DNA of 64,000 nucleotides. Source: Paraspadella gotoi (taxonomy: Eukaryota > Animalia > Chaetognatha). The notes under the pieces were generated by a model. That model worked only from the letters and a program-made list of their open reading frames with translations, made no database searches and was not told the origin of the DNA. The stretch is from the NCBI GenBank assembly GCA_051294375.1, contig CM119264.1:8005051-8069050 (forward strand). The letters run 5' to 3'. Below are positions 44,601-56,600 of the stretch, piece after piece (the first letter of the stretch is position 1; each line of letters begins with the position of its first letter). The position numbers were made by a program, and so were the translations under genes.

Positions 44601-47600
44601 GTAAGAAGAGTTAACGAGACACTTATATATACTACCTCAAAAACCAAGAAAATAAAGTATTTTGAAAATTCATAATATCAATTTCGGATGTAAGAATGTT
44701 TGTGTGCTTGAGAAGTGGCCCGTCCCATAACAGGGAACCAAGCTTTCCTTTTAATTATTCAGCTGACTTTGATTGTTAACATTTCTCGCAGTTATGGACC
44801 GATGCGAAGGCCCGGACTGTATCTGCCCGCCAGGAATGACGGGAATCGAACCATTTTGTGAACCAGTCACACCCGGTTAGTAGCCATGTAACTTTTAAAA
44901 CGTTACTTCATGCAACACTTTCTCTTTATCATTCAATTTGATGATTTTAGATTCGCCGTTTATTCCCGAAGTGATGGACAGATGCGAAGGACCGAACTGC
45001 CACTGCCCACCAGGGATGACGGGAGTTCAGCCATTCTGTCGATCTATACGAGAGATAGGTGAGATTCCAATAAATAGTAGTTTGTTTTCTTTATTTACCT
45101 TTTCGTCTCTCACCACTACTCAGATCTTGCCCTCAGTATTTTTTTTTTCTTTTTTCTATCTATTTTTTCGTTACATTTGTAATCGGTCATCGCTGTCCAT
45201 CCAAAATTGAAGAAAATCACTTACTACTCAGTCGTCGATAATAGAAAAAGTTGAAAAGAGAAATAATCTAAAAACGTTTCGTTATAAAAACAATCAGTAA
45301 CAACTTCATTACAAAATAAATGTAACTATACGAAATAAAAGAAAGATACAACAGAAATTGTGTCTAGCTACAAAAGAATGCTCATTGCGATGAAAACCAT
45401 TGCGCACGTGCACCCACGGAATGTGTAGAGATAAAATTTAAGTCTAAGATCCAACAAATTTGCTTTTTTTTTTTAAATTTTCTTTTCGTGTTCTTCTTTC
45501 TTATTTTTCTTCTTCCTCGTCATTCCTCTCTCTCTTTCCTTTTCCTCTCCCACTCTCCGATCGTCTCTTCGATCCATTTCCGGTAACTCGCAACTCTCAC
45601 GTAAATCCCCGGCCGACGCTCACGCGCGCATCCTTCGCCAAAACTGACCACGCCCACGAGGACGTTTCGGGGCCGAGTGGCGCCGCTGGGGGCGGTACGA
45701 ACGACGGCGGGCCCGCCCGAGTCGCCTTGGCAAGTGTCGACGCCACCTTCCGGAAATCCGGCGCAAATGACGTCATCGCCGATGGTGACGTTGAATCTGG
45801 CGGCAGATTCGCGGTAGTATGAGCGGCAGGAAGAAAGGGCGAGGATGGGAACCTGGCGGCATATTAAAATATTATAATGTAACATAAAAAGAGCATTTAT
45901 GGACTTCTTGCATGTTTATTTAGAGCAAAATGAAAACAGATGTGAGACCTCTTTTTAATTTTAGTAATATTTTATATGGATTTAGAGCACCGATTTAAAT
46001 CGAGTAACCCTGTAGATTGTAGTATCTAAATTTAAATCAAGCTAATCTTCAATCTTTTTAAATAAAATTAAAACTAATTGTTAACGTTAATAAAATCGTA
46101 AAATAAGTCACCTCGGCCGCCCTGAGCCTCCTCGAAAAGGGTCCGCTCTCTTCCTCGCTTCCCCATCCGCTGACGATGAGTCGACGCCCTATTCTATGAA
46201 TGTCTTCGTCGTCACCTTCGTCGGACGCCAAGCACGCCGGCTGAACGTAGTCGTCGAATGTAAGCGGCGCGGCGAGACGCAACAGCGCCAGATCGTTGTT
46301 GTTGTTGACGTAGGCGCCGTTTTCGCCCGGGGAACCGTTGCCGTCGGAGGCGCTGAAGTTATTGAACCAGACATCAGGCGGAATGTAGGCGGGGTGACGG
46401 ACGACGTCGATGACGCCGACGTTCTGCTCGGAACAGTCCAAGCTCAGCTTGTCCTTTAAGAGGAGGGTTAGTTCGTAAGGATAGAAAATAGAAAAGAATT
46501 TAAAAAAAAAATAAATGATAATTATAGGTAAATAAACAAAACATTAAAAATAAACAGACCAAGAGAATTAACAACCTGAATGACGTTTTCTCCGGCGTAA
46601 ACACGAAAAAAATTTCTTGCCCTTCCGTCGACAATTCCGCCCAGAGAATCCAGGCCTTGGGCGTCTTCGTCTCCCACATTGATCGCACCCAAAGCGACCA
46701 AGTTTTTGAAACCGGAAGTTGTGGTGTTGCTGTGGTTAGATCCGGAAGTGCTGATATTCGGGCTGGATATGTTTTTTGGGTTTTGTTGGTCAGCGGAAGT
46801 AGAACCGGAAGCGAATTCGAAGAGAAAGTTCTTCATGACCTCAAAACAGTGAGCGGCGGTGAGGACCCACCGCTCGTGAACAATGGTGCCGCCGCAGTGA
46901 TGGTAGTGTCCCATCAGGCCGATGCTTACCTGTAAAGTTTTTTATCGGTAATAAAATCGTCTATCAACTAATCATTGAGCATTTCATAATTGCCTGATAA
47001 GGAAAGTTTCCATGTTGGACGCCGTTTCCTCCCACGATTCTCTTAACGCGTTTTCCTCTCTCGCCGAAACTGAGACCACACTGATCGGGAAGAACCGACC
47101 AATCAGAGCTCGAAGAATTGTTTAATTTTACATTCGTCCGATCGACGGACTCGTTTTGATTTTCGGAAGTTGAAAAATCCCTGACGTCCGAAAGCGAAGG
47201 TTTTATTATGGAGGAAGCTTCGGAGTCGCCGCTCGACCAATCGGAAGCCGACAATCTCTCGACGGAGTTTTCGCTCAACTCTCCCGACGAATGAGAATCG
47301 AGTGCGCGAGTTGTTTTCACTTGATTGCTCGAGACGTCCGGCCCCGATCGCAGATTTCGCCGCAAGGGCGCAGTTTCGTTTCTCGCGGCGACTTCGGTTT
47401 CTTTCTTTTCGTCTGAAAAGTCCAGCTTTTCGTCCGAGCTTTTCGCTTTCTTTTCGTTCAGTATTTTCGACCATCTCGACTGACTTTCCGAACGATGAAA
47501 GATCGGTCCCACTTCCGGTCGTATTAGCCCTTGCCGCCGCTGCCACTGCTCCTGGGGCCGCGTTCCGCATCGATCCTCCCACTCGCGTCCGAGACGGCAC

Positions 47601-53600: not shown

Positions 53601-56600
53601 CAGGGGCTTTCGTGGCTATTTTGACGAAAGTTTAGCGAGAGAAACAAAAGGCATCCCTAGGTCTTCAAAAAGTTTTCTCTCAAAGATTTTGTACAGATAC
53701 TTAAATTATTTAAAATAGAGATAAAAAATTAAGCATATTACTTTGGCCCACATTTCTGTTCCGTGTTCACCATCCAGGAAAATATTCTCTGACACTTTTG
53801 TCATTTTTTTAGGAAATCCGTCCTTCATCGTCCCTAAACCTGGTGAGTACTTGAGCTCAGCACTTCTGGTTTATTATTTCGAGCATCTCCACATTTTCCA
53901 TCACTTTTTCACTCCTCACAGATGCGGCTAACATATGCTCTCTCCCTGCTCGAGTTGGCTTTTCCAACGGGATTTCCTGCATGGCCATGATGAAGCGGTT
54001 TTTCTATAACAAGTCGACCAGACGCTGCGAGGAATTTGTGTATGGAGGATGTGGAGATGAGATCGCCAACCGTTTTAAAACGGAGGAAGAGTGCATGAAC
54101 ATGTGTGGCCGGAGGGGAACTGGTGAGAGCTTCTGTGTTATTTTTGTTTTTCATAAATACACTAAAATTTTGGCGATGAAAAATATATTTAAGTGAGCTA
54201 AGAAATGTAAGCGTTAAATAATCTTCTATCCCTTCCAGACACCCGGCCATATCCTCTTCCTCCTATGACATCTGGAGATGATTGCCCTAAAATCTGCTCT
54301 CTGGAATACTTCCCGATCTGTGGCAGTGATGGAATTACCCATGGAAACCGATGTGCTTTTGAAACAGCTGCGTGCCTAGCTAGAAAAGAAGGAAGGGTTG
54401 TAACTCTCATCAAGGAAGGGCCTTGTGATAGTAAGTTGTAGATTGCAAAAGATTTGATATGATACAAGACTTCACAACTACTCTTGCTACACTAACTGCA
54501 GACTCAAAACCATCATTAGATGACAATGATTGCCAAAAAATGTGCACCTATGAATATCGCCCTGTTTGTGACTCGGAAAGCATCACTCATGGTAACAAGT
54601 GCGCATTTGAAGTTGCTGTTTGTGAAGCCAGAAAAAAAGGAAAGAATTTGTTTATGACAAAGGAAGGACAATGTGAAGGTAAGAAAAAGAGGTAGATAAT
54701 TGCTTTGAAGAAAAATAGTGTAAAGGAAGCTTAAATTCATCAGGTAACCAGCCCACTCCTCGGCCTCCAATGACAACCGAAGATGACTGCCCCAAATTTT
54801 GCACCCTTGAATATTCTCCAATTTGTGGAAGTGATGGTGTGACCCATGGAAACCGATGTGCTTTTGAGACTGCTGCATGCCATGCACGGAAAAAGGGAAG
54901 AGTTTTGACTCTCATCAAGATGGGGTCTTGTGAAAGTAAGTGGTCAAGTTGTTGTTATTTGGGATGGAACATTTTGTTTTTGTTATGTGTACTTTGTAGT
55001 TAATAAAAAAAGTTTATTCTATTATCTAGGTAAACCATTGGAACCTATACCAACTCCTGACAAATGTGAAGGTCCAGATTGCAAATGTCCACCTGGTTTT
55101 GTTGGTGTACAACCTTTCTGCCAAAAGCCCGGTACATCCCTTTTCTCATTATTTTCAAACTGCAAATATATTTAACACTTGTAATTCTTACAGATGCAGA
55201 ATATATATGCTCTCTTCCATCAATGGTTGGCTTTTCCAACGGGATTTCCTGCATGGCCATGATGAAGCGGTTTTTCTATAACAAGTCGACCAGACGCTGC
55301 GAAGAATTTGTGTATGGAGGATGTGGAGATGAGATCGCCAACAGATTTAACACGGAGGAAGAGTGCATGAGCATGTGTGGCCGTTTAAAGATTGGTTCGT
55401 TACACTATCTATGACTAAATTAAGTAACATCGGTTTTCTGAGTCGTTTGTTCATAGAAACCTTTGTTTTCTAGGTATTTCTTCAGAAGATCCGAATTTGG
55501 TTGTGGTTCCATCTCTCGTTGAATCTGGTACGATACTGCAATTAGAAAACGAGTTAGAGAAATAGAGAGAGAGAAAGAGAGTTGCAGTGATTGGATAGTA
55601 TAGATCTCATTAATATTTAATATTTCAGAAAAATGCAGTCAAGTGTGTACAAGAGAATTTGCTCCGTTGTGCGACAATGAAGGAATGACACATAGCAATC
55701 CTTGTATGTTTAAATATGCGGCCTGTAAAGCCAGAGAGATTGGAAGGGTCATCACTATCGTGAAGAGGGGACGTTGCAACGGTGAGTTTTTATCTGAGAA
55801 TCAAGAACTTCATCACTTACCCTTTCACTCACGTCCTTCGTACTTGCAGAGCCCAAACCACACACAATGGGAGACTGCAACAAAATGTGCACCTACGAAT
55901 ACCGTCCAGTCTGTGATTCGGAAGGCGTCACCCATGCCAACAAATGCAGCTTTGAAGTCGCTGTTTGTGAAGCGAGAAAAAGCGGAAAACTGTTAACATT
56001 GGCCAAACAAGCTCCATGTGAACTTGGTAAATAAAAATTAGTATTTAAAATTATATTATCGGCTGCTGCGACTTTGAGATGCACTAAAATATGAAGGAAA
56101 AAAATTTAATAAATCGATGAAACCTGTTTAATTTTTTCTCTAGCCACTTTACCGACGCTTCAACCACCGATGCCCACGAATGACGACTGCCCCAGGATTT
56201 GCACCATGGAGTACTTTCCCATTTGCGGGAGCGACCGCATCACTCATGGAAATAAATGTGAATTTGAAATTGCCGCTTGCCGAGCGAGGAAAGAAGGCAG
56301 GATGGTCACTCTCGTGAAAGAGGGACCTTGTGAAGGTAAGAAGGGGGAGAGAGAGAGAAAGAGAGTCAATTGTTCATCACACCTTGTCCTGGGTCAGATT
56401 TTGCCCCTAAACCGGAAATCCTTTCCACGGGTGTCTGCGCCACTCACCCTGATCTTCCCTGCTGCGTGGAGACTCGGAAAGTGTACGACCTCCTCAACCA
56501 ACGACATGCCCCTGTCGATCTTGGCTACCCCAGCTGCCGGTCAGATGGCTACTTCGCCCCCAAGCAATGCAACTGGGCCTTCTGTTCCTGCGTTGACAAG

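Follow-up and report, generated by a model that had tools for sequence, protein, structure and literature searches.

In a 64,000-nt stretch of Paraspadella gotoi DNA (CM119264.1; hereafter the window, with three runs of N, all before 12.6 kb) a protease gene on the minus strand and a multidomain protease-inhibitor gene on the plus strand are interleaved, that is, their exon blocks alternate on opposite strands, which is a rare but known kind of gene arrangement. The pre-mRNAs overlap head-on over 7.4 kb and the mature coding parts do not. No coding bases are shared, the coding exons of the two genes being 461, 389, 175 and 886 bp apart, in agreement with a first-pass annotation, made from the sequence letters, in which exons of the two genes came within about 175 bp without overlap. 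The exon coordinates given there for both genes all hold, and both frames are open. The classical definition of a nested gene, a guest in a single host intron, does not describe the pair, since the protease spans host introns 22 and 26.

The stretch is contained in nine sequencing runs, and X9 shares 0.58 of its words. X9 is taken as RNA by guess and from its spliced contigs, no run being recorded as RNA. The contig mapping of the runs covered 44400–52860 and lists 15 of the 18 X9 joints, at positions that are left-shifted relative to the exon ends, and the contig depths in X9 (62.6–86.8 for the inhibitor, 5.24–8.42 for the protease) are not an expression ranking. Runs X5 and X6 come from a different study than the possible source sample and have their own alleles, and X4 belongs to the study of that source. 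In genomic order, with Pfam E values, the interleaved region and the remainder of the inhibitor downstream of it contain the following features.

44792..44875, plus strand: inhibitor exon 21, short Cys-rich module, phase 1-1; X9 joint 44874>44950
44951..45058, plus strand: inhibitor exon 22, second copy of the module, phase 1-1; X9 joint 45055>48248
45059..48250, plus strand: inhibitor intron 22, 3,192 bp, GT..AG, contains protease exons 6–9; no such joint in X4–X6
45520..45852, minus strand: protease exon 9, Asp189, catalytic Ser and stop; Trypsin E 2.5e-21, match to hepsin around the catalytic Ser; joint 45850>46110
46112..46453, minus strand: protease exon 8, catalytic Asp; Trypsin E 2.3e-10; joints on both sides
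46576..46929, minus strand: protease exon 7, catalytic His; Trypsin E 4.1e-09; joints on both sides, upstream intron GC-AG
46994..47861, minus strand: protease exon 6, end of the split LDLa repeat, last LDLa repeat (E 4.9e-13), linker and RVKR/IVGG; X9 contigs 26 and 27
47862..49986, minus strand: protease intron 5, 2,125 bp, phase 2, within an LDLa repeat; contains four thyroglobulin exons
48251..48475, plus strand: inhibitor exon 23, thyroglobulin 1, phase 1-1; E 1.8e-17; joints 45055>48248 and 48474>48875
48876..49118, plus strand: inhibitor exon 24, thyroglobulin 2; E 3.8e-18; joints on both sides
49199..49429, plus strand: inhibitor exon 25, thyroglobulin 3; E 1.9e-16; joints on both sides
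49572..49811, plus strand: inhibitor exon 26, thyroglobulin 4; E 9.6e-17; joint 49428>49571, high cover ends at the donor
49812..53812, plus strand: inhibitor intron 26 (inferred), 4,001 bp, contains protease exons 1–5 and the protease promoter region; open frame
49987..50178, minus strand: protease exon 5, LDLa repeat (E 2.2e-13) and the first two cysteines of the split repeat
50307..50417, minus strand: protease exon 4, LDLa repeat; Ldl_recept_a E 2.2e-13
50554..50670, minus strand: protease exon 3, LDLa repeat; Ldl_recept_a E 7.2e-08
50806..52053, minus strand: protease exon 2, two LDLa repeats (E 6.7e-10) and a Ser/Thr/Pro-rich linker; joint 52053>52337 in X9 contig 28
52337..52926, minus strand: protease exon 1, start codon, signal-peptide-like N-terminus and Thr-rich stretch; X9 contig 28 covers 52337–52791
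53813..53842, plus strand: inhibitor exon 27, 30 bp, phase 1-1, in frame
53922..58260, plus strand: inhibitor exons 28–42, two Kunitz, seven Kazal, a third Cys-rich module, two divergent thyroglobulin domains, a C-terminal Cys domain and the stop

A 324-nt contig of X9 consists of inhibitor exons 21 and 22 and the start of exon 23, and its joint, at a depth of 62.6, skips 3,192 nt and with them protease exons 6–9. The inhibitor mRNA is spliced across these four protease exons, and their placement inside inhibitor intron 22, proposed in the first-pass annotation, is thereby seen in a spliced contig. All five inhibitor introns within 44400–52860 are present as X9 joints. That the thyroglobulin exons might instead form a short gene of their own, which the annotation named as an outcome that would overturn its model, is rejected by the splicing of exon 23 to host exon 22, together with the region 47862–48240, where X9 cover is nil and no signal-peptide exon is left (there is one weak candidate).

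The converse, inhibitor exons within a protease intron, is supported indirectly, and splicing of the protease mRNA very likely skips the four thyroglobulin exons. The protease frame is open across intron 5, the acceptor of which ranks 1 and the donor 31 among the 56 modelled introns, and exons 5 and 6 together supply all six cysteines of an LDLa repeat, two from the left and four from the right; the position of the intron inside the repeat argues against two genes fused there. Contig 27 of X9 (998 nt, depth 5.24) ends at 47859, short of the exon end by two bases and with 287 nt left over. If it resumes on exon 5, a depth of 11.22 is predicted for the bin 49777–50059, where 11.2 is seen, which also needs the thyroglobulin contig (depth 77.3) to cover 36 bases up to the 49812 donor; the preceding bins close likewise (59.55 predicted and 59.6 seen, 56.27 and 56.3), the arithmetic resting on rounded figures. 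Four of the eight protease introns (1, 6, 7 and 8) are among the X9 joints listed.

The second long inhibitor splice is placed by similar means. No X9 joint leaves the 49812 donor, which is weak (rank 55 of 56), within 44400–52860, and the next inhibitor exon therefore lies beyond 52860. Only one of the 15 downstream exons, that at 53813, has a first base that fits the 36-base cover at exon 26. Read-through past 49812 is unseen in X9, since it should give a depth of at least 38.8 to the first stop where 11.2 is found. Beyond exon 26 come a stop at 49919 and an AATAAA at 49956, which could permit a rare short form that the contigs would drop.

Some observations weigh against the interleaving as drawn. 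The joint 47859>49985 of protease intron 5 is not among the 15 of 18 X9 joints listed, and two of the three long splices (49987>47861 and 49811>53813, the latter ending beyond the mapped stretch) lack a direct view. The depth of bin 49777–50059 is fitted also by 35 bases and a further contig of depth about 6.2. An LDLa profile, built from three unrelated training repeats and uninformative, gives 22.4 bits to the joined repeat versus 22.0 to its right half alone, so that of the in-phase split of this repeat, on which the first-pass annotation had leaned, the completed cysteines stand and the profile adds little. Finally, no single contig covers the entire stretch 44400–52860. These points, and the short hydrophobic tail obtained by reading through exon 5, would suit an interleaving that is partial or an artefact, with the LDLa and protease halves as separate genes or with 48.0–49.9 kb mis-assembled or inverted. 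This is considered very improbable. Protease exon 6 starts within a repeat, without a start codon or signal peptide, its acceptor is the best of all those modelled, and contig 27 stops exactly at the left-shifted splice site with a depth that closes on exon 5. A mis-assembly or inversion, which the first-pass annotation had set up as a way to undo its model, is unlikely because DNA contigs of other samples bridge both boundaries of the block: contigs of X5 (45560–48380) and X6 (46515–48380) connect protease exon 6 with the first thyroglobulin exon (exon 23), contigs of X4 and X5 (48995–50195) connect the thyroglobulin exons (from exon 26) with protease exon 5, and the pieces within the block overlap.

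Further joints in the mapping, 46515>51681, 47787>51664, 49964>50748, 50102>52363, 51701>52377 and 50111>50071, are not splices and were set aside as repeats; their short sides are 20–42 letters and most occur also or only in DNA runs. Five coding differences were seen, two silent and three residue-changing, and none is frame-breaking. The 56 modelled introns have a median of about 120 bp and five exceed 2 kb, four of which contain exons of another gene; in the fifth, inhibitor intron 1, no exon of another gene was found. Four are GC-AG introns (34031, 38936 and 43477 on the plus strand, 46993 on the minus strand), with RNA support only for 46993–46930.

The protease model comprises nine exons (52926–45520) in one frame of 1,384 amino acids with a single stop at the end; seven introns are GT-AG and intron 6 is GC-AG. 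The protein has a hydrophobic, signal-peptide-like N-terminus, seven LDLa repeats and an RVKR/IVGG activation site, followed by a trypsin-like S1A domain. The motifs of the His/Asp/Ser triad, of Asp189 and of the activation site before IVGG are all found (within residues 1024–1358), hepsin aligns around the catalytic Ser, and the trypsin-type pocket proposed earlier is borne out. The protease domain, 357 amino acids with insertions, extends over four exons, and long low-complexity linkers are found elsewhere. The product is likely a secreted, furin-site-activated enzyme cutting after Arg or Lys, with an LDLa scaffold. An AATAAA at about 45095 (minus strand), in 45075–45520, suggests that the protease 3' untranslated region (UTR) ends a few tens of bases from host exon 22.

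The downstream inhibitor model, 22 exons in 44792–58260, is one open frame with six thyroglobulin type-1, two Kunitz and seven Kazal domains above the Pfam cut-off. The six Thyroglobulin_1 domains, with matches to saxiphilin and the p41 invariant chain, would place the protein with the thyropins (I31). The best thyroglobulin match is generic, with 66% identity, and the full architecture was not met among the best 120 of 335 matches of a thyroglobulin-profile search. Relative to solved Kunitz structures, both Kunitz domains (53922–54122 and 55194–55394, plus strand) carry five extra residues immediately ahead of the reactive-site cysteine.

The inhibitor exons of the first-pass annotation, whose stretch opens at 44792, are right, but they are probably just the second half of the gene. 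Exon 21 opens in phase 1, without a signal peptide; no suitable start or signal-peptide exon was found in 41270–42379 or 44391–44780, and X9 has no upstream joint within 44400–44790 even with a depth of 62.6 on exon 21. Exon 20 of an upstream series ends in phase 1, giving a 42-exon model (29696–58260) of one open frame that requires two GC donors. Quite probably, therefore, the gene would start at 29696, its 42 exons encoding a predicted protein of 2,654 amino acids with 222 cysteines, a signal peptide and a cystatin domain.

29696..41266, plus strand: inhibitor exons 1–20 (probable), signal peptide, cystatin, Cys-rich and Thr/Pro-rich repeats; open frame

The cystatin is in exons 5 and 6 (per-exon E 0.003–0.004, below the Pfam cut-off), and exons 2–4 perhaps hold a degenerate one. 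About eight copies of a Cys-rich repeat without Pfam match are present in 29696–41266; a profile search with it gave one distant match, P0241 (E 3e-4), and a feature-based search with exon 11 gave no usable match. An AG acceptor stands one base before the ATG at 29696, marking a UTR intron or a trans-splice site. A 259-bp direct repeat (95%) at 39526–40262, inside host intron 17, is probably a mobile-element remnant; it weakly matches 57570–57654 in inverted orientation. Alternatively the upstream half is a separate gene that stops after exon 20, the downstream half having a trans-spliced start at 44792. An in-frame stop near 41362 and an AATAAA at 41839 are consistent with this.

Under the 42-exon model, intron 20 (41267–44791) would contain a further gene, on the same strand.

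42380..44390, plus strand: K2P potassium channel gene, eight exons, 414 amino acids, one GC-AG intron, two pore loops, the first GWG

Its Ion_trans_2 matches have E 5e-07 and 1e-10. The channel gene is probably nested in the inhibitor, which depends on the predicted link 41266>44792. Coding-strand (CT)n tracts at 29599–29652, 42068–42139 and 53109–53176 lie 40–310 bp upstream of the host, K2P and protease starts; there is none before 44792, and such tracts, being common also in introns, are only a hint of promoters.

The first-pass annotation had suggested that the two genes could be a protease/antiprotease unit. The P1 residue of a Kazal domain, the second residue past its second cysteine, governs specificity. 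Aligned to ovomucoid and to one another, the seven Kazal domains have Leu, Tyr, Leu, Arg, Tyr, Met and Met at this position, and in both Kunitz domains Met takes the place of the Lys of TFPI domain 1. The P1-Arg Kazal domain noted earlier is thus real (55629–55781), and it is the only one of nine Kazal and Kunitz domains with a basic P1, the other eight having Leu, Tyr or Met. A thyroglobulin domain need not be inhibitory, and many are not. For thyropins and cystatins the targets described are mainly C1A cysteine peptidases (PMC3407033). Judged from its domains, the inhibitor is likely secreted and broadly protective, acting on cysteine proteases and enzymes of the chymotrypsin and elastase type, and the exons that are interleaved would not be those able to act on the protease.

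The layout is probably best explained by two ordinary genes that share introns, exon shuffling having produced the arrangement without a functional tie between the products. The nine-exon protease gene would first have lain antisense within one phase-1 inhibitor intron, as an ordinary nested gene. A phase 1-1 thyroglobulin exon may then have landed in protease intron 5, where it would be unseen by the protease, being on the wrong strand, and would join the inhibitor in frame, and tandem copying may finally have raised it to four. Inhibitor exons 21–40 are all of phase 1-1, and therefore any plus-strand phase 1-1 exon joins in frame. The inhibitor is visibly built by exon duplication at several ages: its thyroglobulin exons are 70–76% alike in DNA with introns little alike, the Kunitz exons are 91% alike, and at 56021–57442 (plus strand) there is a recent tandem duplication of 709 bp, with a Kazal and a divergent thyroglobulin exon, that is 91% alike including introns. 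The four interleaved thyroglobulin domains are 68–76% identical to one another and only 30% identical over 40 amino acids to a downstream thyroglobulin domain of the same gene, which argues for a separate arrival. Without the block protease intron 5 would measure 564 bp, near the size of the other protease introns (64–283 bp). Protease introns account for about 16.5% of the phase-1 intron space that is free in the inhibitor, and a chance landing is therefore not improbable and selection not needed for it; this figure depends on our own 42-exon model and ignores selection, which weakens the case. Further against it, the order of events rests on no relative, the searches having given generic matches alone: the closest protease match is 46% identical and no orthologue is found among the best 120 of 1,296 matches to exon 9, and none of eight candidates scored in a homologue search with Kazal exon 29.

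The main rival for the origin, which we regard as unlikely, is that the thyroglobulin block was a small gene antisense in protease intron 5, hence doubly nested, with exons later captured by the host. There are precedents for genes nested doubly or on the same strand, Hormiphora having 484 of the doubly nested kind (PMC8527503), and same-strand nesting seems to occur in this host with the K2P gene. Third-position GC is 0.64 in the block versus 0.51 and 0.43 in the flanking host exons, and the stop and AATAAA downstream of exon 26 could be the end of such a gene. Its beginning is missing, as 47862–48240 holds neither a clear signal-peptide exon nor X9 cover, and at its two ends exon 23 is spliced from host exon 22 and read-through past 49812 is unseen. 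Slightly less likely still is a selected unit, in which the P1-Arg Kazal domain would inhibit the protease and convergent transcription would separate or balance the two products. The enzyme would then be physically locked to its own inhibitor and inseparable from it by simple rearrangement, a cell would make either one, with the Arg Kazal domain of this four-class inhibitor (cystatin, thyroglobulin, Kunitz and Kazal) as the brake, and the host would in addition splice over a same-strand channel gene. Both proteins are predicted to be secreted, the Asp189 pocket suits the Arg Kazal domain, for which a single domain would suffice (a point that also counts against shuffling without a functional tie), the pre-mRNAs meet head-on, and interleaving makes the genes hard to separate. 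The P1 residues of the eight other domains do not fit, the interleaved exons code for thyroglobulin domains and not for the Arg Kazal, and searches with the protease, thyroglobulin, Kazal and Cys-rich repeat gave no orthologue and so no conserved linkage. The functionally unrelated K2P gene likewise lies inside the host model, in the next large intron, indicating that the host collects passengers irrespective of function, and the proposed unit is not supported. If true, such a coupling would be a new way of wiring an enzyme to its brake, but the evidence so far does not favour it. Exon shuffling into the intron of a guest, as preferred here, would give a simple route from nested to interleaved genes.

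Each gene would be transcribed from its own promoter, and the two would be expected to interact through colliding polymerases whenever both are active in one nucleus, which is most likely tolerated through expression in different cells, at different times or at different levels. Against this, spliced forms of both genes occur in X9, a single bulk run that is uninformative on single cells. The literature on expression points in both directions. In Drosophila the members of a nested pair resemble each other less in expression and function than neighbouring genes do (Lee and Chang 2013, PMC3814207; Assis 2016, PMC5174743), which suits two genes without a functional tie, and transcriptional interference accompanies their divergence (PMC5174743); co-expression is described as relatively common in C. 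elegans pairs, where a nested gene is able to induce its host (Soulavie et al. 2025, PMC12274878). Most Drosophila guests on the strand of their host have a single exon or one intron (PMC3814207), and an eight-exon same-strand guest would be unusual, if confirmed. The locus is a compact natural test of head-on transcription and of a spliceosome skipping a same-strand eight-exon gene.

For fly and worm, Misra et al. 2002 and Chen and Stein 2006 reportedly count interleaved pairs in the few tens. Interleaving is defined and drawn as a standard gene relation (bioRxiv 10.1101/006650; PMC5534336), and interleaved genes, together with nested ones, are described by Lin et al. 2008 (PMC2291194) as fairly common in metazoans. 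In known interleaved genes, as here, exons lie in each other's introns on opposite strands with no common coding bases; unlike them, this pair alternates in blocks that are all multi-exon and coding. Its inner gene is made up of nine exons, a protein domain is interrupted by the crossing intron, and one gene encodes a protease, the other a protease inhibitor. No protease gene interleaved with an inhibitor gene was found in the literature, in a search that reached few subscription papers. Lin et al. place interleaved structure beyond prediction by standard gene finders (PMC2291194), and genes such as these would therefore be split or missed in automatic annotation. The locus is a clean example, with RNA support, of two interwoven multi-exon coding genes.

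Opposite-strand nested genes of Drosophila and C. elegans (PMC3814207, PMC5174743, PMC12274878) share with this locus an antisense gene inside the host span and convergent transcription, whereas the present protease gene extends across two host introns and has four host exons within it. TIMP in synapsin (PMC2825198) is a protease-inhibitor gene in an antisense nested arrangement, but there the inhibitor is itself the guest and occupies one intron of a host that is no protease, in a layout conserved across animals. Nested genes make up 5–12% of genes in RNA-annotated animal genomes (PMC10282587), and Hormiphora californensis has 2,357 of them, many parallel (PMC8527503). Hormiphora and Aphrocallistes resemble this locus in having compact genomes with large introns containing genes, some on the same strand (PMC8527503, PMC10282587); those are entire genes lying within genes, whereas here host exons, not a third gene, occupy the intron of the guest.

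As to the products, enteropeptidase and the matriptase/TMPRSS proteases also carry LDLa repeats before an Asp189 trypsin domain, and insect Nudel and the modular serine protease are further LDLa-bearing S1A proteases. P0070 has the same series of signal-like start, charged linker, LDLa repeats and protease domain. The present protease differs from the LDLa-bearing family in its long low-complexity linkers and the insertions in its protease domain, and CUB, SEA and SRCR domains were not found in it. Multidomain thyropins combine thyroglobulin domains with Kazal, Kunitz, WAP or antistasin domains (MEROPS I31; PMC3407033), as here, but the present inhibitor has six thyroglobulin, seven Kazal and two Kunitz domains, a probable cystatin and unnamed Cys-rich repeats in about 2,650 amino acids.

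Elsewhere in the window, a single-exon gene at 27433–28362 (plus strand) encodes a 309-amino-acid membrane protein without a Pfam match, for which learned sequence features (Atlas) point strongly to EamA-like transporters. A multi-exon gene at 24412–25896 (plus strand) resembles, by eye, a rhodanese/mercaptopyruvate sulfurtransferase, and exons at 4937–5200 and 7218–7457 (plus strand) resemble, also by eye, the end of a trypsin domain and a ShK-type Cys-rich domain. A pure (GAC)n tract of about 250 bp occupies 61309–61557, with a short tandem repeat upstream at 59190–59410.

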